Shown one piece after another: positions 8,361 through 56,380 of a stretch of 64,000 bases of DNA (within the stretch, counting starts at the first letter, position 1; the number at the start of each line of letters is the position of its first letter). This stretch comes from an uncultured Candidatus Saccharibacteria bacterium. Lineage in GTDB: Bacteria; Patescibacteriota; Minisyncoccia; Portnoybacterales; UBA2143. Under the pieces are notes generated by a model. It had not been told where the DNA came from. It searched no databases and saw nothing but the letters and a program-made list of their open reading frames with translations. The translations under genes and the position numbers were made by a program. The DNA lies in the NCBI GenBank assembly GCA_964413015.1, contig CAYPQZ010000006.1:7070-71069 (forward strand), written 5' to 3'.

Positions 8361-8465
8361 TTGTCAAAATTTAAGGAGTCGTCCTTTTCCTCCAGAGGCG
8401 GACAGGCGGACACGCCCTTTGTCTGCGGCAAAGGGAAGTGATCCTCAATGACAATCCTTAAATTT
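8361..8465 (-). repeat. family-B ~105-nt TIR-bearing intergenic repeat (copy B1, reverse orientation)
   Basis: ttgtcaaaatttaaggagtcgtcc...cctcaatgacaatccttaaattt; shares its termini with the other five copies. Confidence 0.75.
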
Positions 8466-8511
8466 AAATTTCTCTGGACAAAATAAATCTCCCTGTTATA
8501 ATTACCTAATT

Positions 8512-10131
8512 ATGAGTAAAAAGAAAATTATTGTGATTTCCAGCACAGCCGTTATTGTAATAGGCGGTTATTTTTCTTTTCAGGGAATTTTTGGCAAGCC
8601 GGATAATGATTATTCGGTTTTCCCGGTTGCCAAAGGAGAAGTTATCCAAAATGTTTCGGTGACTGGCACGGTTATTCCGGCTAAACAGATTGACTTGCAG
8701 TTTGAGAATCAGGGCAAAATTAGCCGTATTGAAGCGCAGATTGGGGACGAAGTTCAAGCCGGAGATATTTTAGTCAGGTTAAACTTTTCTGAATTAAGCG
8801 CTCAGCTGCAGGCCAATTATGCCGCTTTGGATATTGCACAAGCCAAACTGGACCAGATTTTAGCCGGCAATCGCCCGGAAGATATCCAGGTTTATCGGAC
8901 CGCGGTCACTAATGCGGAAGTTGAAGTGAGTAACAAAGAACAGGCCTTGACTGACGTTCAAACCGACGCGGACAGCGATTTGAAAGAGGCCTATGAAGAC
9001 GCTTTAGATACTGTCAAAAGCGCCTATACCTCGGCCGATAAAGCGCTTTTAATCACTTTTGCCAGAATTAGGAGCGAATATTTCAACGGGAACAACCAGC
9101 TGGCTCTCAATGTTAAAAGCAAAGAAACTGCTGCTAAAAATGATTTGTCAGCAGCCAAAGAGTATTTAAAAGCGGCTGAAGTCGATTCTGTTTACAGCAA
9201 AATTGACCTGGCCTTGGATAAAATGGAGTCGGCCGTTACCAGCATTCGGAGCGCCTTGGCATATATCCGGTCCGCTATGGATGACCCCAGCGTTTCCAAC
9301 AGCGTTTCTTCTTCTGACGAGACCAGCATTGATAACGAAAGGACCAGCATTGACGATGAGTTAGTTAATCTGACTTCGGCCGAACAAACCATCAATTCAA
9401 TTCGGGTAACCAACCAGAACAATATCAATACCGCCCAGTCAAACCTGGATTCAGCTGAAACAGCTTTGGAAAAAGCTAAAAACGAATTAGCTTTGAGAGA
9501 AGCTGGGCCGCGCCAGTCCGATATTGATTTAGCCCAGGCTGAAGTTAATCAGGCCAGAGCCAATATTACCCAAGTTCAGGCGAGAATTAGCAAGACAATT
9601 TTGAGAGCTCCGGTGGCCGGCACGATTACCACGGTGGAGGGCGAGGAAGGTGAAATCGCTTCAGTCAATTCAACCATTGTTTCAATGATTAGCGCCGGTT
9701 CTTTCCAGATTGAAGCCAATGTTTCTGAAACTGAAGTGGCCAAGGTGGAACTGCAGGACCGGGTTGAAATGACTCTGGACGCCTTGGGGCCGGAAGAAAA
9801 ATTCGTCGGACAAATTATTAAAATTGACCCGGCTGAAACGGTTGTTTCCGGAGTTATCTATTACAAAGTGACTTCGGTTTTTGATTCAGAAGATTCCCGG
9901 ATAAAATCGGGCATGACCGTTAATTTGGACATCCAGACGGATAAACGGGAAAACGTTTTGTACTTGCCCTATTATCTAATCAAAGAAAGAAATGGCGACA
10001 AATACGTTTTAGTTCTGGAAAATGGCGAAGTTAAAGAAAGAACAATCGAAACGGGCATTGAGGGAGAAAACAGCGTAGAAATTACCCAAGGACTTTCAGA
10101 AGGAGAGGAAGTTATTATGGAGCAGGAGTAG
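8512..10131 (+). CDS. efflux periplasmic adaptor (HlyD/MacA/YknX-like membrane fusion protein)
   Basis: N-terminal TM, biotin-lipoyl-like motifs (GDEVQAGDILVRL), long coiled-coil, C-terminal beta domains. Upstream of an ABC ATPase and two FtsX permeases. Confidence 0.75.
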   Translation: MSKKKIIVISSTAVIVIGGYFSFQGIFGKPDNDYSVFPVAKGEVIQNVSVTGTVIPAKQIDLQFENQGKISRIEAQIGDEVQAGDILVRLNFSELSAQLQANYAALDIAQAKLDQILAGNRPEDIQVYRTAVTNAEVEVSNKEQALTDVQTDADSDLKEAYEDALDTVKSAYTSADKALLITFARIRSEYFNGNNQLALNVKSKETAAKNDLSAAKEYLKAAEVDSVYSKIDLALDKMESAVTSIRSALAYIRSAMDDPSVSNSVSSSDETSIDNERTSIDDELVNLTSAEQTINSIRVTNQNNINTAQSNLDSAETALEKAKNELALREAGPRQSDIDLAQAEVNQARANITQVQARISKTILRAPVAGTITTVEGEEGEIASVNSTIVSMISAGSFQIEANVSETEVAKVELQDRVEMTLDALGPEEKFVGQIIKIDPAETVVSGVIYYKVTSVFDSEDSRIKSGMTVNLDIQTDKRENVLYLPYYLIKERNGDKYVLVLENGEVKERTIETGIEGENSVEITQGLSEGEEVIMEQE

Positions 10132-10203
10132 TTAGGGGTAAAAGATAAATTTGAAAAATTTAAGAATTATCGTTAAGTCATCAAAGGATAACCGGCTTTC
10201 AAA

Positions 10204-10307
10204 AATTTAAGGATTGTCATTGAGAGTAGCGACCTTCCGCTGAAGGCGAAAAGTCATGCTCGTCTGTCTGTCTCTGGAGGGAAAGGATAATTCTTAAATT
10301 TTGACAA
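10204..10307 (+). repeat. family-B repeat copy B2
   Basis: aatttaaggattgtcattgagagtagcgacc...ggaaaggataattcttaaattttgacaa. Confidence 0.75.
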
Positions 10308-10316
10308 GTTCAAGCA

Positions 10317-10380
10317 GATAAGAACAGTCTTTAAAATAACGCCTTTGTGCTCAAGGGACATCATTTTAAGGACTGTCCTT
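10317..10380 (+). repeat. family-A ~62-nt hairpin repeat copy A1
   Basis: gataagaacagtctttaaaataacgcctttgtgctcaagggacatcattttaaggactgtcctt. Confidence 0.75.
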
Positions 10381-10411
10381 TAACTGCTCTAAAAGTCAGT
10401 ATCCGAAAAAC

Positions 10412-11128
10412 ATGCTTATTGAATTGAAAAATATTACCAAAGATTACGTAGATGAGGAGATAACTACCCGGGCTTTGCGCGGGGTTTCTTTTGGCATCAA
10501 CGAAGGTGAATTTGTGGCCGTTATGGGCTCTTCCGGCTCGGGTAAATCCACCTTGATGCACATTATCGGCTTTTTGGATAAAATGACCCAGGGCGAGTAC
10601 TTTTTTGACGGGGAGAATGCCAGCGATTTTGATGACCACAAACTGGCTGAAATTAGGAACCGGAAAATCGGCTTTGTTTTCCAGTCGTACAACCTTTTAG
10701 CCCGGACTTCGGTCTGGGACAATGTTTTACTGCCAACTCTTTACACACCCAGCTTAAACAAAAAGGAAACCGAAGAAAGAGCTCAGCATCTTTTAAAGAA
10801 ATTGGGCCTGATAGAAAGAACCAATCATCGGCCCAATCAGCTTTCCGGAGGCGAGCAGCAAAGGGTGGCGATTGCCCGGGCTTTAATTAACCAGCCGCGC
10901 TTAATTCTGGCGGATGAGCCGACCGGGAACCTGGACAGCAAATCAGGCCAGGAAGTCATGGAAGTTTTGCAGGATTTGAATGAAGAGGGAAATACCATTT
11001 TAATGGTGACCCACGAGAAATACGTGGCTGAATGCGCCCGCCGGATTTTGAATATGAAAGACGGTCTGATTGTCAGCGATTACCAGGTAGCCCACCAGCA
11101 TTTGGCTAAAAACGGATTGAAGAAGTAA
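10412..11128 (+). CDS. ABC transporter ATP-binding protein (MacB/LolD/YknY-type)
   Basis: Walker A GSSGSGKST, signature LSGGEQQRVAIARAL, Walker B ILADEPTGNLD. Confidence 0.85.
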   Translation: MLIELKNITKDYVDEEITTRALRGVSFGINEGEFVAVMGSSGSGKSTLMHIIGFLDKMTQGEYFFDGENASDFDDHKLAEIRNRKIGFVFQSYNLLARTSVWDNVLLPTLYTPSLNKKETEERAQHLLKKLGLIERTNHRPNQLSGGEQQRVAIARALINQPRLILADEPTGNLDSKSGQEVMEVLQDLNEEGNTILMVTHEKYVAECARRILNMKDGLIVSDYQVAHQHLAKNGLKK

Positions 11129-11195: not shown

Positions 11196-11300
11196 TTGTC
11201 AAAATTTAAGGAGTCGTCCTTTCCCTCCAGAGGCGGGCAGGCGGACACGCCCTTTGCCTTCGGCAAAGGGACGTGATCCTCAATGACAATCCTTAAATTT
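11196..11300 (-). repeat. family-B repeat copy B3 (reverse)
   Basis: ttgtcaaaatttaaggagtcgtcctttccctccagaggcgggcaggcggacacgccctttgccttcggcaaagggacgtgatcctcaatgacaatccttaaattt. Confidence 0.75.
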
Positions 11301-11348: not shown

Positions 11349-12581
11349 ATGTATTTCTTAAATACCCTTAAATTAACCTTTCAGAATCTAGCTTTGAAGA
11401 AAAGCCGTTCTTTTTTAACCATGCTGGGCATTATTATCGGCGTAGGTGCAGTTATTTCAATTATGGCGATTGGCGCTAGTGCCCAGGCCTTGCTTTTGGC
11501 GCAGGTTAACGCCATGGGGACTAATTTAATCGGCATTTTGCCGGGCGCCTCCGATGAAATGGGCCCGCCCGCAGCCGTATTCGGCATAGAAGTAACCACT
11601 TTGAAATATGAAGACGCCTTAACTTTGGCAAAACTTCCCCATGTCTTAGCGGTCAATCCGTATATCACCGGGCAGGGAACCTTTAGCTATTTTAACCGGG
11701 CGGAAAACTATAACTATTCAGGAGTCGGGGCTGATTATCCTAATGTTGAAGACGCTTCAGTGGAGTTGGGGCGTTTTTTTAGACAGGATGAAGTTGACGG
11801 TTTGGACAGAGTAGTTGTTTTGGGAAGTGAAGTTAATGAGAAGTTTTTTGGAGAAGATAATCCAATAGGCAAGAGGATTAAGATAAATCAGGTGAGTTTT
11901 AAAGTTATCGGGGTAATGGAGCAAAGAGGCGTAGTTACTTTCCAGAATCAGGACGAACAGGTTTTTGTTCCAGTCAAAACCGCCCAGAAAATACTTTTGG
12001 GCGTTGACCATTTGGCTTTTATTCGTGCCAAAGTTGACCAGAGTGAAAACATTCCTGCAGTCATCAGCCGGATTAAAGACACTCTTCGTTTCCGGCATCA
12101 TATTAAAGATCCCAGAAAAGATGATTTTTCTGTCAGGAGTACCGAGCAGGCCTTGGATATTTTAGGCAGTATTACCCAGGCCTTGAAATTGTTTTTAGCC
12201 GCCGTAGCGGCTATTTCTTTGATTGTCGGCGGCATTGGGATTATGAACATTATGTTCGTAGTGGTTAATGAACGGACCCGGGAAATTGGCCTGCGCAAGG
12301 CCATAGGCGCTAAAAGAAAAGACATTTTAACCCAGTTTTTAATTGAAAGCGCCACCATGACTTTAATTGGGGGAATCATCGGAATTATTTTAGGAATTTT
12401 AATCTCTTTAATTGTTTCAATCGGCGTAAACTATTTCGGCTATGATTGGAAATTCATTATTACTCCTTTATCCGTTTTTGTTTCCACTTTAATGGCGGTC
12501 AGTGTTGGTCTGGCTTTTGGTTTATGGCCAGCTAATCGGGCTTCTAAATTGAATTCAATTGAGGCCTTGCGATACGAGTGA
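11349..12581 (+). CDS. ABC transporter permease (FtsX/MacB-type)
   Basis: The listed ORF begins at 11283 inside repeat B3. ATG 11349 (MYFLNTLKLTFQNLALKKSRSFLTMLGIIIG) matches the canonical MacB-permease N-terminus. MacB periplasmic domain plus FtsX C-terminal TMs. Confidence 0.8.
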   Translation: MYFLNTLKLTFQNLALKKSRSFLTMLGIIIGVGAVISIMAIGASAQALLLAQVNAMGTNLIGILPGASDEMGPPAAVFGIEVTTLKYEDALTLAKLPHVLAVNPYITGQGTFSYFNRAENYNYSGVGADYPNVEDASVELGRFFRQDEVDGLDRVVVLGSEVNEKFFGEDNPIGKRIKINQVSFKVIGVMEQRGVVTFQNQDEQVFVPVKTAQKILLGVDHLAFIRAKVDQSENIPAVISRIKDTLRFRHHIKDPRKDDFSVRSTEQALDILGSITQALKLFLAAVAAISLIVGGIGIMNIMFVVVNERTREIGLRKAIGAKRKDILTQFLIESATMTLIGGIIGIILGILISLIVSIGVNYFGYDWKFIITPLSVFVSTLMAVSVGLAFGLWPANRASKLNSIEALRYE

Positions 12582-12667: not shown

Positions 12668-13927
12668 ATGAATCCTCTTTCTATAATTAAACAATCTCTG
12701 ATTGCTTTAAAAGCCAATAAATTGCGGAGTTCTTTTTCTATTTTAGGAATTGTTATTGGCGTGGCCGCGGTGGTGATTATTCTTTCAATGGGACAGGGAT
12801 TGAAAGGGCTAGTTACCAATGAAATTGAAGCCTTTGGCCCGAATATTCTAGATATTGCCGTTAAAATTCCCGGTTCTGACCAGATTAGCACGGTTGTTTC
12901 AATGGTCCAAGGAGTTAAAATTACCACTCTGAAAGTCAAAGACGTTAAGGCCTTGCAAGACAAAGACCGCTTTCCGTATATTGAAGCTGTTAGCGGGCAG
13001 GCGATTGCCCAGGAATGGACTACTTACGGCGGAGAAGAAAAACTGTCTTTAATTTACGGATGCAGTCCTGATTATCCTTTAGTTATGAGAATGTCTAAAA
13101 TAGGCCAAGGGCGGTTTTTCACCCTAGGCGAAGATGACGGTTTGTCCAAAGTGGTGGTTTTAGGAAGCGGGATTGCCGAGGATTTCTTTAAAAAAGAAGA
13201 TCCTTTAGGGAAAAAAATAAAGGTCAAAGGTCAGAATTTCAAAGTGGTTGGAGTCTTTGAACCGCAGGGCGGAGCGATCTTTGGCGGGATTGACATTAAC
13301 GACTTTTTATACATTCCCTTACAAACCGCCCTAAAGGAATTTTTAGGGATTGACTATTTATCGGAAATAGTGGTGACGATTGCTGACGAAAAATACTCGG
13401 CGCAGGCGATTGAGGAAATCTCCCGGATGCTCCGAAAACATCACAATATCCAGAATCCGGCCAAAGACGATTTCCAGATTACAACCATGGAAGAGATTCT
13501 GGAACAGGTCAATGAAATCAGCGTTATTCTAAACCTCTTGCTGGGATTTTTAGCCGCCATTTCCTTGTTAGTTGGCGGCATTGGGATTATGAATATTATG
13601 CTGGTTTCAGTGAGCGAGCGGACTCGGGAAGTCGGTTTGCGCAAATCATTGGGAGCGACCCAGCGGGATATTCTTTGGCAATTTTTGATTGAGAGCTTGG
13701 TAATTACCAGCTTAGGCGGCTTTATCGGAATTTTCTTTGGAATCGTTGTTTCCTTAATGGTTGGATTCGGAGTCCAGTATCAGGGGTTAAACTGGCCTTT
13801 GACCATTTCCTGGCTGGCGGTAATTGTTGCTTTTTTGGTATCAATGGCCATCGGGCTGATTTTCGGCATTTACCCGGCCCGCAAGGCCTCCAAACTCAAC
13901 CCAATAGAAGCCATGCGGAAGGAGTAG
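12668..13927 (+). CDS. ABC transporter permease (second FtsX/MacB-type)
   Basis: Paralogous to 11349-12581: ...KLRSSFSILGIVIGVAAVV..., C-terminal FtsX TMs. Confidence 0.8.
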   Translation: MNPLSIIKQSLIALKANKLRSSFSILGIVIGVAAVVIILSMGQGLKGLVTNEIEAFGPNILDIAVKIPGSDQISTVVSMVQGVKITTLKVKDVKALQDKDRFPYIEAVSGQAIAQEWTTYGGEEKLSLIYGCSPDYPLVMRMSKIGQGRFFTLGEDDGLSKVVVLGSGIAEDFFKKEDPLGKKIKVKGQNFKVVGVFEPQGGAIFGGIDINDFLYIPLQTALKEFLGIDYLSEIVVTIADEKYSAQAIEEISRMLRKHHNIQNPAKDDFQITTMEEILEQVNEISVILNLLLGFLAAISLLVGGIGIMNIMLVSVSERTREVGLRKSLGATQRDILWQFLIESLVITSLGGFIGIFFGIVVSLMVGFGVQYQGLNWPLTISWLAVIVAFLVSMAIGLIFGIYPARKASKLNPIEAMRKE

Positions 13928-14033
13928 ACAAAAAGGGGAAGAATGTGTAAAATTTAGATAGGATACATAGAGGGCAGTTAAAAAATTTAAGGATTGTCAT
14001 TTAATGCTTAGCTGTGTCCTTTAAACTAAACAT

Positions 14034-15998
14034 ATGTCAACACAAATATATTTTATTCTATCAGCTTCGGTTATTGCTCTTGTCTTTGCCTCAATCCTGG
14101 CTTGGCGGATTAAAAAGCAAGCGGTTGTTTCTAAAAAAGCCGGTCAGATAAGCCAAGTAATCAGAGAAGGGGCGATGACTTTTTTAAATCGGGAATACCG
14201 GATTCTGTTCGTTTTTGTGGTTGTAATTACCGGACTCCTTTACTATTTTCTTAATCCTAAAACAGCGATTGCTTTTGTTGCCGGAGCTTTTTTAAGCGCT
14301 TTGGCCGGACAGATTGGAATGCGGGTGGCGGTTTTGGCCAATATCCGGACTGCGGAAAAACTGAATCAGGATTTTAAATCCGGACTAAACGTCGCCTTTA
14401 ACAGCGGCAGTGTAATGGCGATGAGCGTGGTTGGCTTGGGTCTTTTAGGAGTTACTGCTCTTTACCTAATTTTTAAAGACCCGGTCATTATTTACGGCTT
14501 TGGGTTTGGCGCTTCTTCAGTAGCGTTGTTTGCCCGGGTAGGCGGCGGCATTTATACCAAAGCGGCTGACGTGGGAGCGGATTTAGTCGGCAAAGTAGAG
14601 CAGGGAATTCCTGAAGATGACCCTCGTAATCCGGCCACCATTGCCGACAATGTCGGCGACAATGTCGGTGATGTAGCCGGCATGGGAGCGGATTTGTTCG
14701 AAAGCTACGTGGATAGCATTATCGCCGCTATGGTAATCGGCTCAATTGTAGCTGTTGGAGAACGAGGGATTTTACTGCCTTTAGTTTTAGCCGGTGCCGG
14801 CATTTTAGTAAGTTTAATCAGCAATCTTTTTGTAAAACTGGGTTCAGTCCAGTCCGGTTCAGGTCATAAAGCTTTAAACCGGGGCATCTGGGCGGCTACC
14901 CTTTTAATGGCAGTCAGCGCCTTTGGGCTGATTAAGTATCTTGGTTTTGGAATTAATATTTTTTACGCCTTTTTATCTGGACTTTTAGCCGGCTTAATTA
15001 TTGGCCTGGCGACCGAATATTTTACTTCCGACAAATATTCTTTGACTCAACGGGTTGCTAAAGCGGCCCAAACCGGAGCCGGAACCAATATCATTGCCGG
15101 ATTTGCTTTGGGGCTTTTAAGCACGGCGATTCCGGTTTTGGCAATTTCAGCGGTCATTTTCTTGGCTTACCAATGGAGCCAGTTGTTCGGAATTGCTATT
15201 GCGGCAGTCGGCATGCTTTCCACCTTGGGAATGACTCTAGCGGCCGATACTTTTGGCCCGGTAGTGGATAATGCGGCCGGAATTGCCGAGATGTCCGAAA
15301 TGGGCGAGAACACCAGGAAAAGAGCCGAGGATTTGGACGCAGTTGGCAACACTACGGCTGCGATTGGCAAGGGCTTTGCTATTGGGGCGGCCGCTTTAAC
15401 GGCTTTAGTTTTAATGGTTAGCTACGGGCAGGCGGTTAATTTGCCTTTTATTGATATTTTGAACTACCGGGTGATTATCGGGCTTTTCTTGGGCGGATTA
15501 ATGCCTTTCCTGTTTTCTTCTTTTGCTTTGCAGGCGGTTGGCCGGGCGGCCATGTCTATGGTTAAAGAAGTCCGCCGCCAGTTCAGGACAATCAAGGGAA
15601 TTATGCAGGGCAAGGCCGAGCCGGATTACAAGAAGTGTGTGGATATAAGTACACGGGCGGCTTTGAAAGAAATGATTTTGCCGAGCGTTTTGTGCATTTT
15701 GGCGCCGGTTTTAGTCGGGTTCCTTTTAGGTCCGGCCGCTTTAGCCGGTTTGTTGGCTGGTTCTATTGTGGCTGGGTTTTTGTTAGCTATTACTATGTCT
15801 AATTCCGGCGGGATTTGGGATAACGCTAAAAAATATATTGAAGCAGGTAATTTGGACGGCAAGGGTTCGGAAACGCATAAAGCGGCTGTAGTCGGGGATA
15901 CGGTCGGCGACCCCTTCAAAGATACCGCCGGTCCTTCATTAAATATTCTGTTGAAATTAATGGCGATAGTCGCTTTGATAATCGCCCCGTTATTATAG
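14034..15998 (+). CDS. hppA: K+-insensitive/H+(Na+)-translocating membrane pyrophosphatase
   Basis: [29 protein letters not shown], about 15 TM segments. Confidence 0.9.
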
Positions 15999-16826: not shown

Positions 16827-16866
16827 AGGACATTATTGAAAGTATTGAAGAACTGTCTTTAAGGAA

Positions 16867-16970
16867 ATTTAAGGATTGTCATTGAGAGTAGCGACCTTAC
16901 GCCGAAGGCGGAAAGTCGCGCTCGCCTGTCCGCCTCTGGAGGGAAAGGACGATTCCTTAAATTTTGACAA
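16867..16970 (+). repeat. family-B repeat copy B4
   Basis: aatttaaggattgtcattgagagtagcgaccttacgccgaaggcgg...ggaaaggacgattccttaaattttgacaa. Confidence 0.75.
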
Positions 16971-16982
16971 AGGCAACCCGAT

Positions 16983-17044
16983 AAGAACAGTCTTTAAAAT
17001 GACGCCCTTGTGCTCAAGGGACATCATTTTAAGGACTGTCCTTA
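16983..17044 (+). repeat. family-A hairpin copy A2
   Basis: aagaacagtctttaaaatgacgcccttgtgctcaagggacatcattttaaggactgtcctt. Confidence 0.75.
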
Positions 17045-17069
17045 TCGGAGGATTACCCTCTATGTACAT

Positions 17070-20551: not shown

Positions 20552-21407
20552 ATTAGTGATTGCTTCCGGAAAAGGCGGGGTCGGCAAGTCCATGCTAACT
20601 TCGGCTTTGGCGATGCTTTACAGCCAAAAAAAGAAGATAATTGCAGTGGACGCTGATGTAGACGCGCCTAATCTGGCGGTTTGGCTGAACCAATTGGATG
20701 AAAAAAATGTCCAGTTTTCCAAGAAAATCTCTACTTCTTTGAAGGCAATCATTGACGAGAACAAATGCAATGGCTGCGGCCAGTGTGTTGATAAGTGTGT
20801 TTTTAGCGCTTTGAAAATTAAGAATCACAAGGCCAAAGTAAATCCTTTTTTATGCGAAGGATGCGGCGTTTGCCAAATTGTTTGTCCGCAGAAAGCGGTT
20901 GAATTAAGGCCGGTGGATAACGGCCAAATTAAGATGGTGAACACCGATTACGGCTTTCCTTTGTTTTCCGGCCAGCTTTTGCCGGGCGAAACCGGCTCGG
21001 GCAAAGTGGTGGCTGAAATTAAAAAGGCGGCCCGGGAAAAAGGCGATTGCGATTTAATGCTGATTGATTCCTCGCCGGGCACAGGTTGTCCGGTCATCGC
21101 TTCCTTTCAGGATGCTGATTTGGCGGTTTTAATCACTGAACCGACGCCTTCCGGATTAAGCGATTTGAAAAGAGTTCTGAAAGTGGTTGAGCATTTCCAG
21201 ATTCCTTTTAAGGTGGTGGTTAATAAATGGGATATTAATCCTTCAATAACCGGAGAAATAGAGGAAGAGTTTAAAAATGAGTTTTTAGGAAAAATTTCCT
21301 ATGACCAGGGTATTTTCAAGGCAATTGCCAATTTAACGCCTATTTTAAAAACCAAATTAAAGGCCAAACAGGAAATTAAAGCAATTTTCAAGAAATTATA
21401 CAGTTGA
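20532..21407 (+). CDS. MinD/Mrp-family P-loop ATPase with two 4Fe-4S ferredoxin motifs (second paralogue)
   Basis: SGKGGVGKS, CNGCGQCVDKCVFSAL, CEGCGVCQIVCPQKAV. The stop codon lies inside REP copy 4. Confidence 0.75.
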   Translation: MKNKNFRLVIASGKGGVGKSMLTSALAMLYSQKKKIIAVDADVDAPNLAVWLNQLDEKNVQFSKKISTSLKAIIDENKCNGCGQCVDKCVFSALKIKNHKAKVNPFLCEGCGVCQIVCPQKAVELRPVDNGQIKMVNTDYGFPLFSGQLLPGETGSGKVVAEIKKAAREKGDCDLMLIDSSPGTGCPVIASFQDADLAVLITEPTPSGLSDLKRVLKVVEHFQIPFKVVVNKWDINPSITGEIEEEFKNEFLGKISYDQGIFKAIANLTPILKTKLKAKQEIKAIFKKLYS

Positions 21408-21424
21408 GACGTCCAACGTCTCAA
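21404..21424. repeat. REP-like palindrome copy 4 (TTGAGACGTCCAACGTCTCAA)
   Basis: Seen directly, 17 kb from the transposase gene. Confidence 0.8.
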
Positions 21425-25362: not shown

Positions 25363-27902
25363 TGAAGAAAATGCCTCTAAAATTTATTGTTTTATTTTTA
25401 CTCATCGGCCTTAACTGGGCCGGACTTTCGGCTATTGGCGAAACAATGGCTTATTTTAGTGATATTGAAAATACTTCAAATAATGTTTTTAAAACAGGAA
25501 TTTTAGATATGACTATCAGGTCAGGCCAGAATAATTTTGTCCCTGATGCGGAAAATATGATGCCCGGAGACCAGGTTAACAGGGATATTTATGTAGGAAA
25601 AACTGCAGGCAGTATGCCTTTGAAACACAGGGTTAGTTATGAATTTATTGACGGCAATCCAGAATTATGCAGCCAATTGGATTTAAAAATTTGGTATGAC
25701 CATTTTACTTGTAAAGGTTCTTATAAAGATTGTAGAGATATGCGCCTGAAATATAATGATTCTTTAGTTTCTTTAAATAATTTAGTGGATTCTAATTTTA
25801 TAATTCCCCATCCAGATGACCAATTTGATACTGATGACAGCGATGGAACAGAGCAATGGTTTTATTACAGCATTATTGTGCCAAATGATTTAAATGATTC
25901 TTTTCAAGGCGAGGTTTGTAAGTTCAAATTTGTTTATGAAGCCTGGCAGGATAATTTTGATAATTATGGAGATGGGGGCTTTACAGATGTTGAAGAAATA
26001 GAAAGCACTATAAAAATAGGTTATAGTAATCCGCCGGTGGTTTTGAATGAATTCTTGCCTAATGCCGGAACTTACCCGGAATTTGTTGAGATTTATAATA
26101 AAACCGGTTCACCAATTGACCTTCAAGGATACCAAATTAGAGCCAATGGCCACCCGATTCCTATAAATCCTGCTACTACTAGTCGTTTTTCAGAAGGCAA
26201 TACAAACATTTCTCCTTATAGCTGGCTGGTTGTCGCTAGTCCTAAACCAAATAATCCTGGTTGGAACAGTTCTATATGGGATAATTTCTTAAATGATAGT
26301 TCAGGCACTATAGAGCTTTACAATAAACATGAAGTTATAATGGATTCTTATACTTATGGAAATCCTGACCACAATGTTAATAACACTCCGGGCTGGACTA
26401 ATGATTTAGTAGGATATTGGCCTTTTGATAAAAATAGTGGTGATACTGCTTATGATAAGAGCGGAAATAATAATGACGGTACTATTCATGGAGCTACTTG
26501 GGCTACCGGCGTGGTTAACTCCGGTTTGACTTTTGGTGGTTTCAGTGACTATGTCGATTGTGGCAATGATAGTACTCTTGACTTTACGAATACAGATAAT
26601 TTCACTTTAAGTCTTTGGGCTAAGAAGGAATCCAATCCCTCAGAGGGTAATGTAATGGGATTGGCTGGTAAAAATATTAAATATGCTATTGATTACTACT
26701 TTAAACAAGATAAAATAAGAGCCGGCATTAGAAACGAAGATGATGGACAATATATGATTACTACCCAACCTTCAAATGAACTTTTAGATTGGAATCATAT
26801 TGTTTTTGTTTATGAGAGTGAACAGTCGGATGGTATGAAGCTTTATGTGAACGGTGGCCTGAAATCCTCTCGAACTACCGAAGGATTGAGCGGCTTCAGT
26901 AACCCAAGCCGACACTTTGAAATAAGTGGTCCTGCTACCGGAGGAAACATTGAAAGATTTAATGGTACTATAGATGAAGTTAAACTTTATAATCGAGCAT
27001 TAAGTGATGATGAGGTATTAGAGAACTATAACAAGGTGGTATCTGCAAGCGGGAATACTGTGCCAGTAGATAAATCTTACGCTCGTATACCTGATGGTAG
27101 CAGTAATTGGGTGGATCCGGTGCCTACTCCTGGCGGGCCTAATTCTATGGACAATGATGCACAATCAATGCCAAACACAGAGCAAAATTTTGAAACAAAC
27201 AGCGATTTGCCGGAAAATGATAATAATTCTCAAACAGATAGTCAGAACAGCGAAGGCGGGAACGAAGAAACAGAAGAGCAGATAATCAATGAAGAAGAAG
27301 ATAAAAACGGAGAGGATCAAGGGTGCGAAGAAGATAATGAAGAAATCGGGATAAAGGAGAATGACGAAGATAATAAGGATGGGGATGACAGCCAGGGCGA
27401 GGGGAGCGAGGAAGAAAACGGGGATGATAATGATGAAAATCAGGGGAATAAAGCAGCTGACGAAGAAGAAGATGATGAATCTAATGAAGAAACAGAAGAA
27501 GGCTTCTCTAATGACGAAGAGGATAATAATAGAGAAGAAGCAAATAATGCTTCTGAAGAAGATGCTGATTTTGAAGAAAACAATTCTTCAAACGAAGAGG
27601 AAGAAAAAGATTCTGATAATCAATCTAAAGAGAAAAACGAATCAGATAATTCCAGCGAAGAATCTAATAACAATCAGGAGCAAGAAGAAAATTCAGATAG
27701 CAACAATACAGACCAAGAAACTGGCACAGACCAAGAAACTGGCGAAGAAACAGGCAATTCTTCAGAGAACAGCAGTTCAGATAATAGCAGCCAAGAAATA
27801 AAAGAGAATAGCGGTGAGGAAAGTAATTCCGGCAATCAAAATCAAGAAGAACCAGATGATAATTCGGGAAGCGAAGATTCAAATCAAGATAACGATGAAT
27901 AA
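25362..27902 (+). CDS. large secreted protein: SipW-cognate signal, lamin-tail-like domain, LamG/ConA-like domain and a ~260-aa polyacidic D/E/N/S-rich tail
   Basis: Signal ...GETMAYFSDIENTSNNVFKTGILD. LTD-like VVLNEFLPNAGTYPEFVEIYNKTGSPIDLQGYQIR. LamG-like LVGYWPFDKNSGDTAYDKSGNNNDGTIHG...DEVKLYNRALSDDEV. Tail residues 590-846 are more than 60% D/E/N/S. Confidence 0.6.
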   Translation: MKKMPLKFIVLFLLIGLNWAGLSAIGETMAYFSDIENTSNNVFKTGILDMTIRSGQNNFVPDAENMMPGDQVNRDIYVGKTAGSMPLKHRVSYEFIDGNPELCSQLDLKIWYDHFTCKGSYKDCRDMRLKYNDSLVSLNNLVDSNFIIPHPDDQFDTDDSDGTEQWFYYSIIVPNDLNDSFQGEVCKFKFVYEAWQDNFDNYGDGGFTDVEEIESTIKIGYSNPPVVLNEFLPNAGTYPEFVEIYNKTGSPIDLQGYQIRANGHPIPINPATTSRFSEGNTNISPYSWLVVASPKPNNPGWNSSIWDNFLNDSSGTIELYNKHEVIMDSYTYGNPDHNVNNTPGWTNDLVGYWPFDKNSGDTAYDKSGNNNDGTIHGATWATGVVNSGLTFGGFSDYVDCGNDSTLDFTNTDNFTLSLWAKKESNPSEGNVMGLAGKNIKYAIDYYFKQDKIRAGIRNEDDGQYMITTQPSNELLDWNHIVFVYESEQSDGMKLYVNGGLKSSRTTEGLSGFSNPSRHFEISGPATGGNIERFNGTIDEVKLYNRALSDDEVLENYNKVVSASGNTVPVDKSYARIPDGSSNWVDPVPTPGGPNSMDNDAQSMPNTEQNFETNSDLPENDNNSQTDSQNSEGGNEETEEQIINEEEDKNGEDQGCEEDNEEIGIKENDEDNKDGDDSQGEGSEEENGDDNDENQGNKAADEEEDDESNEETEEGFSNDEEDNNREEANNASEEDADFEENNSSNEEEEKDSDNQSKEKNESDNSSEESNNNQEQEENSDSNNTDQETGTDQETGEETGNSSENSSSDNSSQEIKENSGEESNSGNQNQEEPDDNSGSEDSNQDNDE

Positions 27903-38053: not shown

Positions 38054-38221
38054 AAGCTTGACAAGGATTCAATAAAATATTAAGCTGACTATACAGCTAT
38101 AGACAATAGGCAATTCCGCCAGAGGCGGAGTAAGACCTATCGAGGCGAATATTTCTTGCAGTAAGCTTGTCGAACTGTTTGTCTATGGTTTTCCATAGAT
38201 TTTTTAATTATCTAAACTGAT

Positions 38222-38283
38222 AAGAACAGTCTTTAAAATGACGCCCTTGTGCTCAAGGGACATCATTTTAAGGACTGTCCTTT
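38222..38283 (+). repeat. family-A hairpin copy A3
   Basis: Identical over 62 nt to A2/A4. Confidence 0.75.
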
Positions 38284-38335
38284 AATCGAGTTAACGTCCC
38301 CCTTGAAGACTATTTTTTAATTAAACACAATTGGC

Positions 38336-44174: not shown

Positions 44175-44194
44175 AATAAAATTTTTAATTTTTA

Positions 44195-45496
44195 ATGTTT
44201 AAAAATTCTAAAATGCGTAGTATTTTACAATACATTCTTAAAGTTCTAGCTCAAATTATTCTTTGGCGATACAAACCAGAAATTGTTGCGGTAACCGGCA
44301 GCGTAGGCAAGACCGGGGCCAAAGAAGCTATTTATCATGTTCTCAAAGGCAGTTTTAGGACCCGACGGAATATCAAGAACTACAATAATGAAATCGGAGT
44401 TCCTTTGACTATCTTAGGACAGGACATTGCTCCGCAGACAAAAATATCGGCTATCTTTCCCTGGCTGACAATTTTCTTTAAGGCCTGCTTGACCATTATT
44501 TGGCAAAGAAAATATCCTGAAGTTTTAGTTTTAGAAATGGGCATCAGCCATCCCGGAGATATGAAATATCTGGTTAATTTTGCTCCGGCTAAAGTCGGGG
44601 TTATTACGGCAATTGGCGAATTCCCGACACACTTGGAATTTTTTCCGGAAAAGGACCGGCTAATCAAAGAAAAGGCCTTTTTGGTAAAGCATTTAACCAA
44701 GCAGGGGACCGCTGTTTTGAATTACGACGATTTATCAGTTAGGATGATCGGTGATGAATTAGGAGAAAAAACGAACCTTATTCAGTATGGTTTTGGAAAC
44801 GCGGCTGATCTAAAGATACTGAATTATAATTTATTGACTGGTGATTTAGACAAAGGCAATTACGGGATTAGCTTTAAACTGGAATATAATGGAAGCGTGG
44901 TGCCGTTTAGGTTAAACAAGATTTTGGGGAAACAACATGCTTTTGCCGCGGCTGCCGCAGCCAGCGTCGGGCTTGTTTTCGGAATGAATTTGGTTGAGAT
45001 ATCCCATTCTTTATCCGGCTATCATTCTTTGCCTGGCCGAGCTAAATTGCTTAAAGGCGTTAAAAATACCTGGCTGATAGATGATACTTACAACGCTTCA
45101 CCTTTAGCGACCTTGAACAGCTTGGATATTTTGGACAGGCTAGCTGCCGGTCATCCCGGCAGGAAAATAGTTGTTTTAGGCGATATGTTGGAATTGGGAA
45201 TTTATACAGAAGATGGCCATCGACGGGTTGGCCGGGAAATTCCCCAAATCGCTGATTTGCTTTTTACAGTAGGAGCCAAAGCCAACTTTATTGCCGAAGA
45301 AGCGGCTAATCAAGGATTTAACAAAAACAAGATTTTCAAGTTTTACCAGCCGGAAAAAGCCGGCTTGGCTCTTCAGAAAGAATTAGTTCAGGGAGATTTT
45401 GTTTTAATTAAGGGCTCGCGGGGAATCCATATGGAGAAAATAGTTAAGGAAATTATGAGAAGTTCTGAAAAGGCCGATGAATTACTGGTCCATTAG
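44195..45496 (+). CDS. murF: UDP-N-acetylmuramoyl-tripeptide--D-alanyl-D-alanine ligase
   Basis: VTGSVGKTGAKEAI; Mur-ligase middle and C-terminal domains. Confidence 0.85.
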   Translation: MFKNSKMRSILQYILKVLAQIILWRYKPEIVAVTGSVGKTGAKEAIYHVLKGSFRTRRNIKNYNNEIGVPLTILGQDIAPQTKISAIFPWLTIFFKACLTIIWQRKYPEVLVLEMGISHPGDMKYLVNFAPAKVGVITAIGEFPTHLEFFPEKDRLIKEKAFLVKHLTKQGTAVLNYDDLSVRMIGDELGEKTNLIQYGFGNAADLKILNYNLLTGDLDKGNYGISFKLEYNGSVVPFRLNKILGKQHAFAAAAAASVGLVFGMNLVEISHSLSGYHSLPGRAKLLKGVKNTWLIDDTYNASPLATLNSLDILDRLAAGHPGRKIVVLGDMLELGIYTEDGHRRVGREIPQIADLLFTVGAKANFIAEEAANQGFNKNKIFKFYQPEKAGLALQKELVQGDFVLIKGSRGIHMEKIVKEIMRSSEKADELLVH

Positions 45497-45586
45497 AAAG
45501 TTGATTTTTGTCAATTTTTTTGGTAATATTTAAAGATGCTAATTTGTATTTAAAAATTAAAAATTAAAAATTAAAAATTTTGATTT

Positions 45587-45951: not shown

Positions 45952-46869
45952 ATGGAAGAAGGAAATAAAGGAATCAGGTCCTTGATACTTTTTTCAGGTG
46001 GCTTAGATTCTATTTTATTAGTTAAAATTTTAAGAGAACAAGGCGTAGATATAGCTGGCATAAATTTTGTCAGTTATTTTTTTAATGAAGATTTAGCAGT
46101 CAAAGCGGCTAAAGATTTAAAACTTAAGTTAAAAATATTTGATTTTTCGGAGGAACATTTGGCAGTAGTCAAAAAACCCCGTTACGGCTACGGCAAAGCG
46201 ATAAATCCTTGCATTGATTGCCACCTTTTAATGCTTAAAAAGGCCAAGGGAATAATGGTCAAAGAGAAATTTGACCTGGTGGCTACCGGCGAGGTGCTGG
46301 GGGAAAGGCCGATGTCCCAAAACAGGCAGGCCTTAGAGCTAATTGAAGAAAAATCAGGCCTAAAAGGAGCTTTGCTACGTCCTCTGTCGGCTAAATTATT
46401 AGAACCAACCATAGCTGAGGAGAGGGGATTAATTGATAGAAATCGTCTTCTTGATATCTCCGGCCGGAGCCGAAAAAAACAAATGTCTTTGGCTAAGAAA
46501 TGGGGGATCCAGGAATACCCCAGTCCGGCTGGAGGGTGCTGTTTGACTGATTTGCAATTTGCCAAGCGTTTTAAAAAAATGCTTAAATATTGGCCTGATT
46601 GCCGAGGCAAAGATGTCCAATTGTTAAAACTAGGCCGCCATTTTTGGCAGGATAATAATCTGCTTGTGATCGGCCGCAATCAGCAGGATAATAAGGAAAT
46701 TAAAAAAACTTCTCTTAAGAGTGATGTTTTAATAGAACCAAAGGCCTTTCCCGGCCCGAGTATTTTAATTAGAGGGGAAAAAAGCGTTTCAGAACAGAGC
46801 TTAATTAAAGCTAAAGAGTTAATGTTTAGGTATTCAAAGAAAGGACGTTATTTAAAGGACAGTCTTTAA
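45952..46869 (+). CDS. PP-loop ATPase, ThiI-like tRNA sulfurtransferase family (no THUMP domain seen)
   Basis: LFSGGLDS PP-loop; CIDCHLL; ATGEVLGERPMSQNRQALELIE...LLRPL resembles the ThiI catalytic domain. Confidence 0.45.
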   Translation: MEEGNKGIRSLILFSGGLDSILLVKILREQGVDIAGINFVSYFFNEDLAVKAAKDLKLKLKIFDFSEEHLAVVKKPRYGYGKAINPCIDCHLLMLKKAKGIMVKEKFDLVATGEVLGERPMSQNRQALELIEEKSGLKGALLRPLSAKLLEPTIAEERGLIDRNRLLDISGRSRKKQMSLAKKWGIQEYPSPAGGCCLTDLQFAKRFKKMLKYWPDCRGKDVQLLKLGRHFWQDNNLLVIGRNQQDNKEIKKTSLKSDVLIEPKAFPGPSILIRGEKSVSEQSLIKAKELMFRYSKKGRYLKDSL

Positions 46870-46945
46870 AAATTAAGGGAATTTAAGGATTGTCCTTATC
46901 ATCAGCGTATCCCAAGGGACATCATTTTAAAAACTGTCCTTAAAT
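46854..46945 (+). repeat. degenerate family-A/B composite repeat
   Basis: aaggacagtctttaaaaattaagggaatttaaggattgtcctt...cccaagggacatcattttaaaaactgtcctt. Confidence 0.5.
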
Positions 46946-51414: not shown

Positions 51415-51427
51415 AGGATAAGCTGAT

Positions 51428-51489
51428 AAGAACAGTCTTTAAAATGACGCCCTTGTGCTCAAGGGACATCATTTTAAGGACTGTCTTTT
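51428..51489 (+). repeat. family-A hairpin copy A4
   Basis: aagaacagtctttaaaatgacgcccttgtgctcaagggacatcattttaaggactgtc. Confidence 0.75.
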
Positions 51490-51536
51490 TAAGTCCACTT
51501 GATTTTTGTTTTCGGATGAGTTAGGATAGGGGTATG

Positions 51537-51671
51537 CCCCGTAGAGAAATTTTGACTCATTCGCCTTAGGCGAATAAGTAAATATACGGGGATATATATT
51601 AAGTTAAGTTAATAAAAAAAGTATAATTTAAGAGTTTTGATATCTCAAAATGTCAAAGTTCTTCTACGGGG
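51537..51671 (+). repeat. family-D structured element copy 2, ending 1 nt before the rplU ATG
   Basis: ccccgtagagaaattttgac ... gtcaaagttcttctacgggg; internal ttcgcc-tta-ggcgaa hairpin; flanked by ggggtatg on both sides. Confidence 0.6.
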
Positions 51672-52575: not shown

Positions 52576-52601
52576 ACCAATTTTGACAATGACAAACAGA
52601 T

Positions 52602-52663
52602 AAGAACAGTCTTTAAAATGACACCCTTGTCCCAAGGGACATTATTTTAAGGACTGTCCTTAT
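52602..52663 (+). repeat. family-A hairpin copy A5 (shorter loop variant)
   Basis: taagaacagtctttaaaatgacacccttgtcccaagggacattattttaaggactgtcctt. Confidence 0.7.
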
Positions 52664-52680
52664 AGTCTTATCAAGCGCCT

Positions 52681-54053: not shown

Positions 54054-54965
54054 TTAAAGCCATTTTTTCTTTCTGAAGTAAATGACCATTACGCCGGTGG
54101 TGGAAATCATAAAAATAAAGATAATAAACCAGGTAAAACGATTTTGGAGTAAAGGAATTTTCCCGAAAACATTCATTCCGAAAAACCCGACAATTACGCT
54201 TAAGGGGAAGGTAATAAAAGAAACTACCGTCAGGAATTTCATAATATCGCTTAATTTGTAGGAAAGCAGGGAATTGTTGGTTTGCTCAATGGAATTGATT
54301 AATTCCCGGTGATTCTCCAGAACGTTCCAGACCCGGATTGAAGAACCGACGACTTCTTGGCTTAATGGCTGGAGTTCCCGTCCAAAAAAATAATGCGACT
54401 TTTTGGCCAAGATTTCTAAAACTGAACGTTGCGGCTTAAGAGCCCTGCGGAAGTCAATCAGATCTTTTTTGGCCATGGCAATTTCGGTAAGCATTTCTTT
54501 TTCTTTGCCTTGGAAAACCTGTCCTTCAATCTCTTCTATTTTCTCGCTAATATTATCAAGCATAGGCAAACAGGAATCAACTAGCCAATCAAGCAGACCC
54601 ATCAGTAAATGGCCGCTGCTTTTAAAATATTGGTCCTGATGATAGTCCTGAAGATTGCAGTCATCAAAAAATGTTTTTAAATTGGGAATTTCCTGTGCGT
54701 GGCTGGTAATTATGGTATCGGAGGTAACAATAAAATCCAATTCGGTTGGTTTTGTCTGACCAGTCTCCGGGTTGAAAACCGGAAAGTGAAGAACGATGAA
54801 AAGCTGTTCCGCATACTCTTCTATTTTTGGCCGGTGAATCGGCGGGAGGAATTGTTGGACAATAAAAGGGTGTAGATTATATTTTTCTTTTAACTCATCA
54901 AGATCTTTTTGGCTTGGCTTTTCTATGTCAATCCAAATTGTTTTATTAGCGCTTATTGTTTTCAT
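54054..54965 (-). CDS. corA: magnesium/cobalt transporter CorA
   Basis: C-terminal 2 TM with GMN-type motif (FFGMNVF). Confidence 0.85.
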   Translation of the reverse strand: MKTISANKTIWIDIEKPSQKDLDELKEKYNLHPFIVQQFLPPIHRPKIEEYAEQLFIVLHFPVFNPETGQTKPTELDFIVTSDTIITSHAQEIPNLKTFFDDCNLQDYHQDQYFKSSGHLLMGLLDWLVDSCLPMLDNISEKIEEIEGQVFQGKEKEMLTEIAMAKKDLIDFRRALKPQRSVLEILAKKSHYFFGRELQPLSQEVVGSSIRVWNVLENHRELINSIEQTNNSLLSYKLSDIMKFLTVVSFITFPLSVIVGFFGMNVFGKIPLLQNRFTWFIIFIFMISTTGVMVIYFRKKKWL

Positions 54966-55143
54966 AGAATCTCTACGAATTACGAATTTTATACGAATAT
55001 ACGAATAATTTATAATTAGTATATCGGCATTCTGTTTGTAATTTGCAGCAATTTTATTATCAAATATATCTTATCATAATCTTTTCGTATTTGACAACTT
55101 TTGGAAAGGTGATAAAATGTCAATAAGTAGTTAATAATAAATA

Positions 55144-55644
55144 ATGGGAAAAGATGAGAATCTTACATATATTTCTGAAGAAACAGAGGGAGTTAAGAAG
55201 GTCAAGCTTGCCAAAAGCAAGGCGATTAAACTTAAATTAAAAGAGTGCCAAGATGAAAAGGAGGAGTATTTAACCCAAGTCCAGCGAGCTCGGGCTGATT
55301 TAATCAATTTCCGTAGGCGTCAGGAACAGGCCATAGAAGAATTGGGTAAATACGGACAGGAGACTTTTATCAGAGAATTGCTGCCTGTGTTAGACAGTTT
55401 GCGAATTGGAGCCAGAAACAACCCGGAATTGAAATCAGTTAAGAAACAATTAGAGGGAATTTTAAAAAACCGCGGCTTGGGAGAGATTGGAACAAAAGGA
55501 GAAAAATTCAATCCCGAATTTCACGAAGCTATTCAGCAGGTTAAGTCGAAAAAAGAATCGGGGATTATTATTGAAGAGGTCCAAAAAGGATATTTATTAA
55601 ACAATAAAGTTTTAAGACCAAGCAAGGTCAAAATAGCTAAATAG
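55144..55644 (+). CDS. grpE: nucleotide exchange factor GrpE
   Basis: Coiled-coil followed by ADLINFRRRQEQ...LLPVLDSL; upstream of dnaK. Confidence 0.75.
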   Translation: MGKDENLTYISEETEGVKKVKLAKSKAIKLKLKECQDEKEEYLTQVQRARADLINFRRRQEQAIEELGKYGQETFIRELLPVLDSLRIGARNNPELKSVKKQLEGILKNRGLGEIGTKGEKFNPEFHEAIQQVKSKKESGIIIEEVQKGYLLNNKVLRPSKVKIAK

Positions 55645-55795
55645 AATTTTTAATTTCTAATTTTTAATTTTTAAACATTAAAAATTAAGATTTATTTACC
55701 CGCCTGTCAAAGCTACCCGTCAGCAACGCTTAGAGCATAGCTCTTGCGGACTGATGCTTTGCATTGCGGGCAGGTAAAATTAAAAATTAAAATTC

Positions 55796-56245
55796 ATGCC
55801 TATAAAATGGAGACCATTTAAAGATTTAGAAGGGGGACAAAATTTTTCCCAATTGCCTGATATTTTTGGCCAAGGGGAAGAATGGGTGCCTTTTGTCCCG
55901 ACTTTTCGGCCGGAAGAGCCAATCGTGGACATCTATCAGGATAAGGACAATCTCTATGTAGATGTTTCTTTAAGCGGGATTAAGCCGGAGAATGTGGAAA
56001 TTTCTATTGAGGATAACATTCTGACTATTCAGGGCAAGGGCGAAGAGAAAAAAGAAGTTGAGGGAAAAGATTATCTGAGACGAGAAATAAGGAGAGGGTC
56101 TTTCAGAAGAACTCTCAAACTGCCGGTGGATGTAAAAGACAACAAAGCAGTTGCTGAGAGCAAGAACGGCATACTTAAGATTACCGTTCCCAAAGTAGCC
56201 AAGAAAATTTCCAATTCAAAAAAAGTCCCTATTAAAATAAAGTAA
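55796..56245 (+). CDS. Hsp20/alpha-crystallin small heat-shock protein
   Basis: Alpha-crystallin domain VDIYQDKDNLYVDVSLSGIKPENVEISIEDNILTIQG...LKITVPK. Confidence 0.85.
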   Translation: MPIKWRPFKDLEGGQNFSQLPDIFGQGEEWVPFVPTFRPEEPIVDIYQDKDNLYVDVSLSGIKPENVEISIEDNILTIQGKGEEKKEVEGKDYLRREIRRGSFRRTLKLPVDVKDNKAVAESKNGILKITVPKVAKKISNSKKVPIKIK

Positions 56246-56275
56246 GTTAAGCAAGATAAGGACTGTCCTTAAGAG

Positions 56276-56380
56276 AATTTAAGGATTGTCATTGAGGATT
56301 ACGTCCCTTTACCGAAGTCAAAGGGCGTATCCGCCTGTCCGCCTCTGGAGGAAAAGGACGACTCCTTAAATTTTGACAAT
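56276..56380 (+). repeat. family-B repeat copy B6, preceded by a partial family-A arm (56259-56275)
   Basis: aatttaaggattgtcattgaggattacgtccctttaccgaagtcaaagggcgtatccgcctgtccgcctctggaggaaaaggacgactccttaaattttgacaa. Confidence 0.75.

Follow-up and report, generated by a model that had tools for sequence, protein, structure and literature searches.

A palindrome-bounded foldback element at gene junctions of a Parcubacteria contig is probably a non-coding mobile module

The DNA analysed here, called the window throughout, is a stretch of 64,000 nucleotides (nt) from an uncultured Candidatus Saccharibacteria bacterium (GTDB order Portnoybacterales; contig CAYPQZ010000006.1, positions 7,070 to 71,069), about 86% of which is coding, and our subject is a short foldback element, here named B, that is dispersed between its genes. 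An initial annotation made from the letters alone had listed six copies, all intergenic and in either orientation, and on reading the intervals we confirmed the position and strand of every one of them, with the 3' TTGACAA already contained in the ranges. Three copies sit in an efflux operon, at 8361-8465 (-) between the SIMPL and HlyD genes (TTGACAA at 8361-8367 included), at 10204-10307 (+) at the HlyD/ABC ATPase junction and at 11196-11300 (-) at the junction of the ABC ATPase and MacB permease 1 genes. The others are found at 16867-16970 (+) between the genes for a Nitro_FeMo-Co protein and a CDF transporter, at 32570-32645 (-), in a short form, between the divergent prfB and rpsB genes, and at 56276-56380 (+) at the hsp20/dnaK junction. 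The copies are clustered, with four full copies and one fragment within 8.3-17 kb, and the 10 kb flanking the window on each side gave no further copies. A profile built from five copies recovered the full copies with E values of 1e-31 to 1e-38 (4.8e-37 for the copy at 8361, 1.7e-31 at 10204, 3.7e-38 at 11196 and 3.1e-35 at 16867) and the short copy with 4.5e-18, and the copy at 56276 was likewise recovered by profile search.

Full copies of B are 104-105 nt long and are laid out as AAATTTAAGGATTGTCATTGAG, core, CCTCTGGAGGRAAAGGACGAYTCCTTAAATTT and TGACAA. The inverted termini and the conserved 3' TTGACAA described in the initial annotation are indeed shared, the inverted repeat measuring 16-17 bp with 17 paired positions and one bulge; 12 of these pairs are invariant, five vary on one side only, and 99% of cells are paired over seven copies. 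The 15-nt terminus matches 29 times at three or fewer mismatches against 6.1 expected, a number reached in none of 100 shuffles. Alignment also upholds the division of the core into two sub-families, B1 (8361, 11196 and 56276) and B2 (10204, 16867 and the short copy at 32570). The latter, 76 nt long, is a B2 copy with an internal deletion of about 31 nt that takes out the core hairpin, H1. Signs of decay are seen elsewhere, as mismatches at the tips of the B1 copies and in the most degenerate copy, at 10204, which carries many C>T changes. The possibility that B is a coding mini open reading frame was rejected, since a 1-nt indel in the alignment changes the frame between B1 and B2 and it is not kept across the sub-families; B is therefore non-coding. 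Similarly, the called gene start at 11283, suspected of being an artefact, lies inside B, and the length of the orthologous permeases (410 aa) places the true ATG at 11349.

What the initial annotation had not seen is that the termini of B are variants of a palindrome common to a second hairpin family, and that the two families form a composite. Each end of B combines AAATTT with a degenerate version of P, a 17-bp palindrome (TTAAGGACWGTCCTTAA), which reads TTAAGGATTGTCATTGA at one end and AAGGACGACTCCTTAA, with one extra base, at the other. P itself is near-perfect with no usable loop; at up to three mismatches the window has 24 occurrences where 0.22 are expected, and every one lies between genes or at a gene end. 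The second family, A, is a near-perfect hairpin of about 66 nt, P - AAATGAC - GC stem-loop - GTCATTT - P (GATAAGAACAGTCTTTAAAATGACGCCCTTGTGCTCAAGGGACATCATTTTAAGGACTGTCCTT), whose arms contain P. It folds at -44 to -48 kcal/mol (z = -12), its inner GC stem is followed by CATCATTTT on both strands and was scored as terminator-like, and this stem differs in sequence between organisms with its pairing kept.

The order in which B and A are joined is fixed. A hairpins at 10317-10382 (+; profile E 2.9e-24) and 16980-17045 (+; seen by fold and profile) each begin 9 nt past the TTGACAA of the B copies at 10204 and 16867, a variant A hairpin at 8285-8335 (-; profile E 9.8e-07) lies downstream, on the minus strand, of the copy at 8361, and the short copy at 32570 is followed by a truncated left arm of A at about 32550-32562; the copy at 11196 has an apparent decayed A arm, judged by eye only. 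A P-like site stands directly left of four B copies, among them 16846-16862 beside the copy at 16867 and a solo P (ATAAGGACTGTCCTTAA) at 56256-56272 beside the copy at 56276. B is thus normally followed by A, which is bounded by intact P sites, and what spread is therefore the two together, a unit of about 180-200 nt. The modules also occur apart. Solo A hairpins, recognised by repeat finding and profile, lie at 38219-38284 (+) between yceG and rplJ and at 51425-51490 (+) after rmuC, and another at 52599-52664 (+), at the dnaB/recR junction, is preceded by AATTTTGACAA-N10 (about 52579-52598) with no B body, an arrangement compatible with a remnant of B or with a B-free site or AATT target. In a mosaic at 46853-46943 (+), a P site precedes a hybrid (46880-46943) that joins a B-type terminus (46880-46899) to the right arm of A. 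The 5' fragment of B reported at 13981-14005 does carry a B-type terminus, but it is really part of a mini foldback (about 13984-14030, +) in which the left terminus AATTTAAGGATTGTCATT pairs with TGTCCTTTAAA, a P-like half site about 25 nt further on, and it has inserted upstream of the H+-PPase gene, separating the -10 box from the ATG.

Several observations concern genes next to these sites. The TAA at the end of P serves as the stop codon of the upstream gene at 30401, where a solo P-like site (30385-30401) ends a HAD hydrolase gene, and at 46869, where the gene encodes a ThiI-like protein; insertions therefore appear to have reshaped the C-termini of both proteins. Upstream of the H+-PPase gene there is a promoter-like site, TAGACA-17-TAAAAT (window 13925-14036). 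On the contig of a more distant relative (L106, below) the -10 box is 7 nt from the ATG, a leaderless-like arrangement, and the window has a 75-nt insertion there that holds the mini foldback.

The fold of B is three-way: the ends close it, and inside lie H1, a hairpin of 13-15 bp, and then a short conserved segment, CCGCCTCTGGAGGGAAAGGA. The copies fold with z-scores of -3.4 to -4.6, about equally on both strands, and when the structure is placed on an alignment of seven copies 94.9% of cells are paired, compared with 40-58% when the partners are slid by 1-3 columns. The sequence of H1 differs between B1 and B2 with the pairing kept, 6 of its 15 pairs having changed on both sides, and the closing stem varies on one side only and only through wobble pairs. 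In a covariation test seven pairs showed double changes, a number reached in 15 of 500 shuffles, and the covariation score was reached in none of the 500; since the double changes mostly reflect the single B1/B2 split plus one copy from a relative (L006, below), they amount to few independent events. Mismatches on the B(+) strand are G-T in 18 cases and A-C in 6, one-third of the G-T cases coming from a single C>T-rich copy. B thus has a conserved hairpin, which is equally expected for a role as RNA or as single-stranded DNA. Directly 5' of H1, B2 reads AGTAG, as do L006 and a variant in L102, whereas B1 reads GGATCA.

Searches for known signals gave little. B had no match in Rfam at gathering or E-value thresholds, the only matches being tRNAs and chance miRNA matches on A, and a promoter and terminator search gave no consensus belonging to B, which has no GC-rich stem with a T run after it. 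A role of TTGACAA as a -35 box was rejected, as no copy has a -10 box at 16-18 nt and two copies point into the 3' end of the upstream gene. A likeness of the B1 core to the 3' end of 16S rRNA (GGATCAC...), about 12 of 16 positions by eye, is absent in B2 and was treated as chance.

Two records, NCBI LQBG01000056.1 (GCA_002030005.1, 'Firmicutes bacterium ML8_F2') and JGI contig ML8_10000026, have a sequence identical to the window. The ML8_F2 bin, from Mahoney Lake at 8 m, has been described as a Firmicutes genome of 3.0 Mb and 46.6% GC (PMC4846661). The GC content of the window is 40%, and the nearest named homologues of its DnaK, ABC ATPase and Y1 transposase-like protein all belong to Parcubacteria, Portnoybacteria or Patescibacteria. 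Judged from these sequences, LQBG01000056.1 is most likely a contig of the Candidate Phyla Radiation (CPR) that was binned with a Firmicutes genome, which would explain why an exact-pattern scan of GTDB representative genomes with the 21-nt B terminus gave no matches, the species evidently being absent from that set.

Syntenic contigs of relatives were reached through the DnaK and ABC ATPase homologues. The closest, L093, has a dnaK 86% identical in nucleotides to that of the window; L094 and L104 belong to one organism of 33% GC, L096 and L102 to its sister (96-97% nucleotide identity), and L098, L100, L106 and L108 to more distant relatives, gene identities giving the tree ((L104,L102),L106),window. 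A metagenome scan added two matches, of which L005 is due to chance and L006 is a real relative; the latter, with 33% GC and from the same metagenome as L095, is probably part of the L094/L104 organism. B is not confined to the window: L006, which is not syntenic with it, holds a shorter B2 joined directly to A together with two further A copies, and in L093 dnaK is directly followed by a P half site and then the first part of a B2 copy. The L093 contig ends inside this copy (11925-11955), which suggests that such repeats break short-read CPR assemblies. P is about as dense in L094 (3.7 per 10 kb) and L006 (4.8) as in the window (3.75), and it has zero matches in L093, L096, L098, L100, L101, L102, L106 and L108. 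The palindrome itself varies among genomes, AAGGACAGTCCTT versus AAGGCCGTGCCTT, and in the latter variant, found in L096 and L102, both halves have changed together. A covariance model of B, run on the loci of the clade, re-finds B and gives weak matches (E 1e-3 to 0.02) on A-type hairpins and on variants in L102 and L096. One of these, in L102 (E 0.018), has a core like that of B2 between other termini, and an A-type hairpin comes after it. Mosaics on the variant palindrome (AAGGCCGTGCCTT / TAGGCCACGCCTTGA) lie in L102 at 8157-8330 and 13215-13440 and in L096 at 11885-12040, and include the B2-like core GAAAGTAGTGATCTTGCGAAGCAAGGTCACGCT with other termini and then an A-type hairpin; the B-then-A order thus recurs with a different palindrome variant. 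Beyond the clade, there were no matches in plasmids, phages, viral contigs or 80 loci from other phyla, and neither B nor A was found in H+-PPase relatives (many phyla, best match 62% identical), which serve as a negative control only.

The junctions that carry elements in the window were compared with their orthologues. Between hsp20 and dnaK, L093, L098 and L100 have 4 nt and L096 has 19 nt, a single A hairpin occupies the site in L094, and the spacer of the window measures 189 nt, made up of P and B plus an AT-rich tail. In the efflux operon the HlyD/ABC and ABC/MacB spacers are 2 nt each in L102 and L106, and L108 has 2 nt at the first junction and a short overlap at the second, compared with 280 nt (B and A) and 220 nt (B, reversed) in the window. 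The region after dnaK holds an A hairpin in L094, a nested hairpin on the variant palindrome AAGGCCGTGCCTT in L096 and only a short degenerate hairpin in the window. Spacers of 2-4 nt in relatives where the window carries B, read against the gene-identity tree, in which the filled state is derived, show that B arrived by insertion; A too is present or absent at orthologous sites of relatives, and both families were gained by insertion, at sites that differ between lineages.

The L104 contig has its own filling. A family D, about 100 nt with inverted termini and the layout GAAAACAAATTTTTTTGAATCGCTTATCCCT - variable hairpin - GCGYGYCCACACCTACAATTCAAAAAAATT, occupies the SIMPL/HlyD (about 8085-8180), HlyD/ABC (about 9880-9975) and ABC/MacB (about 10745-10840) junctions, all three of which are B-filled in the window, and the last two are 2 nt in the sister contig L102. 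Family D was not detected with the B covariance model, and homology of B and D is not claimed, as it would rest on a short motif, GCGTGTCCRC, seen by eye. None of the insertions shows a target-site duplication in the pairs compared: in the cleanest filled and empty pair, A in L094 versus L096, the element stands between ...TAAGCC and AATTAAAA... and the flank is not repeated, and there is no duplication at the D copies at HlyD/ABC and ABC/MacB when L104 is set against L102. These two D copies are flanked on both sides by 10-40 nt of unique filler, and the pairing extends past the conserved part in all three copies of the family.

A candidate enzyme is encoded in the window itself. The gene at 3412-4080 (+) encodes a Y1 (HUH) protein of 222 aa that resembles a RAYT, the transposase associated with repetitive extragenic palindromes (REPs); it scores 31 bits with Pfam Y1_Tnp (cutoff 23) and 26.5 with NCBIfam REP_Tyr_transpos (cutoff 80). 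It has more than 4000 homologues, and the named ones are almost all from CPR. A different palindrome, C (TTGAGACGTTGGACGTCTCAA), occurs three times over 3385-4080, at the 5' flank of the gene, in the coding sequence (3592-3612, where it encodes LRRPTSQ) and at the 3' end, and a solo C palindrome is found at window 21404-21424. The same C-type layout of three palindromes surrounds Y1 homologues in L109 (Wolfebacteria, 1223-1929) and in L111 (another CPR lineage, 5964-6680), and P, A or B flank the gene in none of the three. The gene therefore has its own cognate hairpins, with no link to P, A or B. Among the proteins scanned in the window and its flanks, none besides this one showed a transposase or integrase domain.

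Taken together, these data suggest that B is probably a non-coding, non-autonomous foldback mobile element, a module of a mosaic family bounded by P and peculiar to a clade of Parcubacteria (CPR), that is mobilised in trans. The MITE-like (miniature inverted-repeat transposable element) nature proposed initially thus holds as far as B is dispersed, non-coding, mobile and equipped with inverted termini, and it does not hold as regards target-site duplications, none of which was seen at any copy or in the filled and empty pairs, and a transposase with matching ends, which was not found in 84 kb (the window and 20 kb of flanks) or in the loci of relatives. B shows the mobility-like behaviour of a MITE or of a REPIN, the hairpin-forming arrangement of REPs, yet it does not pass the defining tests of either: in the DNA covered there was neither a target-site duplication nor a partner insertion sequence (IS), both expected of a classical MITE, and no RAYT flanked by the same repeat, which is expected of a REPIN. 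We envisage that the elements are moved or copied by a trans-acting protein that recognises P, be it the palindrome in double-stranded DNA or a hairpin in single-stranded DNA. The lack of duplications and the pairing that runs into unique flanks point to a hairpin, single-strand or recombinational route of insertion rather than DDE cut-and-paste. The elements would persist at gene junctions because these alone tolerate them, and likely side effects would be a broken translational coupling of HlyD, ABC and MacB, the addition of 5' leaders, and A acting as a bidirectional terminator-like hairpin.

Several results weigh against this reading. No IS with P-type ends was found in the 84 kb or in about 190 kb of relatives. 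Around the B copies there are no direct repeats beyond AAATTT...AAATTT, and palindromic AATT or TA duplications inside those ends would not show. The extra DNA at filled sites exceeds B (P sites, A remnants, unique filler), and an insertion of B alone in a single step was never observed. No insertion polymorphism was seen within the population, the contigs retrieved for this organism all being at least 99.9% identical. The compensatory changes in H1 and the excess of G-T mismatches would also suit selection on RNA. Finally, by our own estimate the overlap of D and B at three of three junctions has a chance of about 6e-4 if 6 of about 60 junctions are filled, which hints at targeting or function and not at neutral parasitism; it could reflect targeting of stop/start junctions, relaxed constraint there, or a benefit from uncoupling the efflux-operon genes.

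A common ancestor that was empty and descendants filled at the same junctions keep alive the possibility that B, or B with A, is a co-opted cis-acting RNA or regulatory cassette. In operon transcripts the closing stem and H1 would then serve as a signal for processing or stability, A would terminate or attenuate transcription, adjacent genes such as HlyD, ABC and MacB would be uncoupled, and mobility would be no more than the mode of spread. The pairing of H1 kept through six double changes, a closing stem that varies by wobble pairs only, the G-T bias, the terminator-like A stem followed by CATCATTTT on both strands, the independent filling of three operon junctions by B and D, and the hairpins after dnaK in the window, L094 and L096 (P half site and start of B in L093) all fit such a cassette. 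It accounts poorly for the presence of B in both orientations within a single co-directional operon (8361-, 10204+, 11196-), for a short copy without H1 and copies that decay, for close relatives (L102, L106, L108) whose version of this operon has spacers of 2 nt or a short overlap, for the missing Rfam match, and for compensatory changes that come down to about one B1/B2 split plus L006; we consider the cassette possible, though not probable. Rather unlikely, in our judgement, is a broader proposal in which the P-bounded modules (B, A, D and the AAGGCCGTGCCTT variants) make up a CPR-specific system, with a P-recognising enzyme inserting structured cassettes at stop/start junctions without duplications and the cassettes serving as portable terminator or RNA-processing units that rewire packed operons. 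If that were true, the filling of the same three efflux-operon junctions by different families would be a matter of targeting or selection and not of chance. P might instead be the binding site of a dimeric DNA-binding protein, a regulator or nucleoid protein, with A and B as arrays of sites that are not mobile in themselves; the near-perfect, over-represented and strictly extragenic or gene-end palindrome, its occurrence alone (56256, 30385, 46853) and in pairs, and the sister-genome variants in L096 and L102 with both halves changed (AAGGCCGTGCCTT) agree with this. Such sites would leave the 60-nt core of B, the long perfect A stems that run into unique flanks and the presence/absence pattern without an explanation, a candidate binding protein was not identified, and we regard the proposal as very unlikely.

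The Y1 gene raises the question of whether B is of REPIN type and is mobilised by the RAYT-like transposase at 3412-4080 acting on single-stranded hairpins, leaving no duplications. In addition to the gene itself, with its Y1_Tnp score above the cutoff and its weak REP_Tyr_transpos match, and the target-site duplications that were not found, the hairpin build fits, and so does the AGTAG of B2 directly 5' of H1, which resembles the GTAG of classical REPs; C-GAA-G loops, moreover, are stable in single-stranded DNA. Against it, the gene is flanked by and contains palindrome C, as do its homologues in two other CPR lineages, the NCBIfam score is far under the cutoff, and B1 has no GTAG. Furthermore, gene calling gave no RAYT-like gene in the 12-22 kb pieces from the L094/L104/L006 organism, which carries A, B and D, although this is weak evidence because the pieces are fragments only. 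Mobilisation of B by this enzyme is therefore improbable in our view. The sRNA-like reading offered in the initial annotation, according to which B would be a free-standing small RNA gene, has in its favour the stable and conserved three-way fold and a TTGACA hexamer at one end. That hexamer, however, is at the 3' end of the fold with no -10 partner, B has no promoter or terminator consensus of its own, its orientation relative to flanking genes is mixed and those genes are diverse, several copies are decayed and one is without the core, and Rfam gave no match; a small RNA gene is hardly credible.

A few other repeats in the window stand apart from B, A and P. A 64-nt pair at 29469-29532 and 51534-51597, 88% identical and with an internal hairpin (CATTCGCC...GGCGAAT), lies upstream of the HAD hydrolase gene and of rplU. 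An acidic low-complexity repeat (GAAGAAGGCG-type, Glu/Gly-rich) at 28838-29077 is part of the open reading frame 27814-29373, which has a purple acid phosphatase N-terminal domain. AT-rich runs of the AAAATT/TTTTAA type occur in intergenic spacers at 44180-44212, 45549-45579 and 55645-55693 (for example grpE/hsp20), and a similar run is found in L094 at 9410-9475.

CPR/Patescibacteria genomes are regarded as streamlined, and in this clade foldback elements have turned junctions of 2-4 nt into spacers of 190-280 nt, breaking apparent translational coupling and adding leaders. Between sister genomes only 3-4% apart, the set of filled junctions and the families that fill them have already changed, which makes the elements useful as strain markers. 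They are also a likely cause of contig breaks in CPR assemblies, and they offer a route to a mobilisation mechanism in organisms with very few recognisable transposases. We found no description of MITE- or REP-type repeats in CPR/Patescibacteria in the searchable literature. B is new as a family; the general kind is familiar.

Among known systems, the Correia MITEs of Neisseria (CREE/NEMIS) and the ERIC/IRU elements of enterobacteria are like B in being non-coding, about 100-150 nt long and furnished with inverted foldback termini, and in lying between genes and within operons in either orientation, with size variants due to internal deletion and presence or absence between related genomes. 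B differs from them in that no TA or other duplication was seen, in having no sequence similarity to them and no partner IS that could be found, and in its termini, which are palindromes common to a second hairpin family. The BOX (boxA-boxB-boxC), RUP and SPRITE repeats of pneumococcus are, like B and A, modular composites in a small genome whose modules occur alone or joined, SPRITE being comparable to family A; there is no sequence relationship, the phylum is another one, and the B-then-A order and the shared P boundaries are specific to the elements described here. The REP/REPIN-RAYT system and the BIMEs of gamma-proteobacteria (PMC3116915, PMC3337134) share with B the extragenic palindromic units assembled into mosaics, the duplication-free insertion, the lineage-specific variants, a RAYT-like gene in the same genome and the arrangement of two inverted palindromic units and a spacer as a long hairpin (P'...P'' in B, P...P in A). 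In contrast to REPINs, an unrelated palindrome, C, flanks the RAYT-like gene, a structured core of 60 nt separates the palindromic ends of B, and no single-copy RAYT is linked to P. By analogy, the mosaic and modular build of B and A appears closest in spirit to the BIMEs of E. coli and to BOX/SPRITE of pneumococcus.

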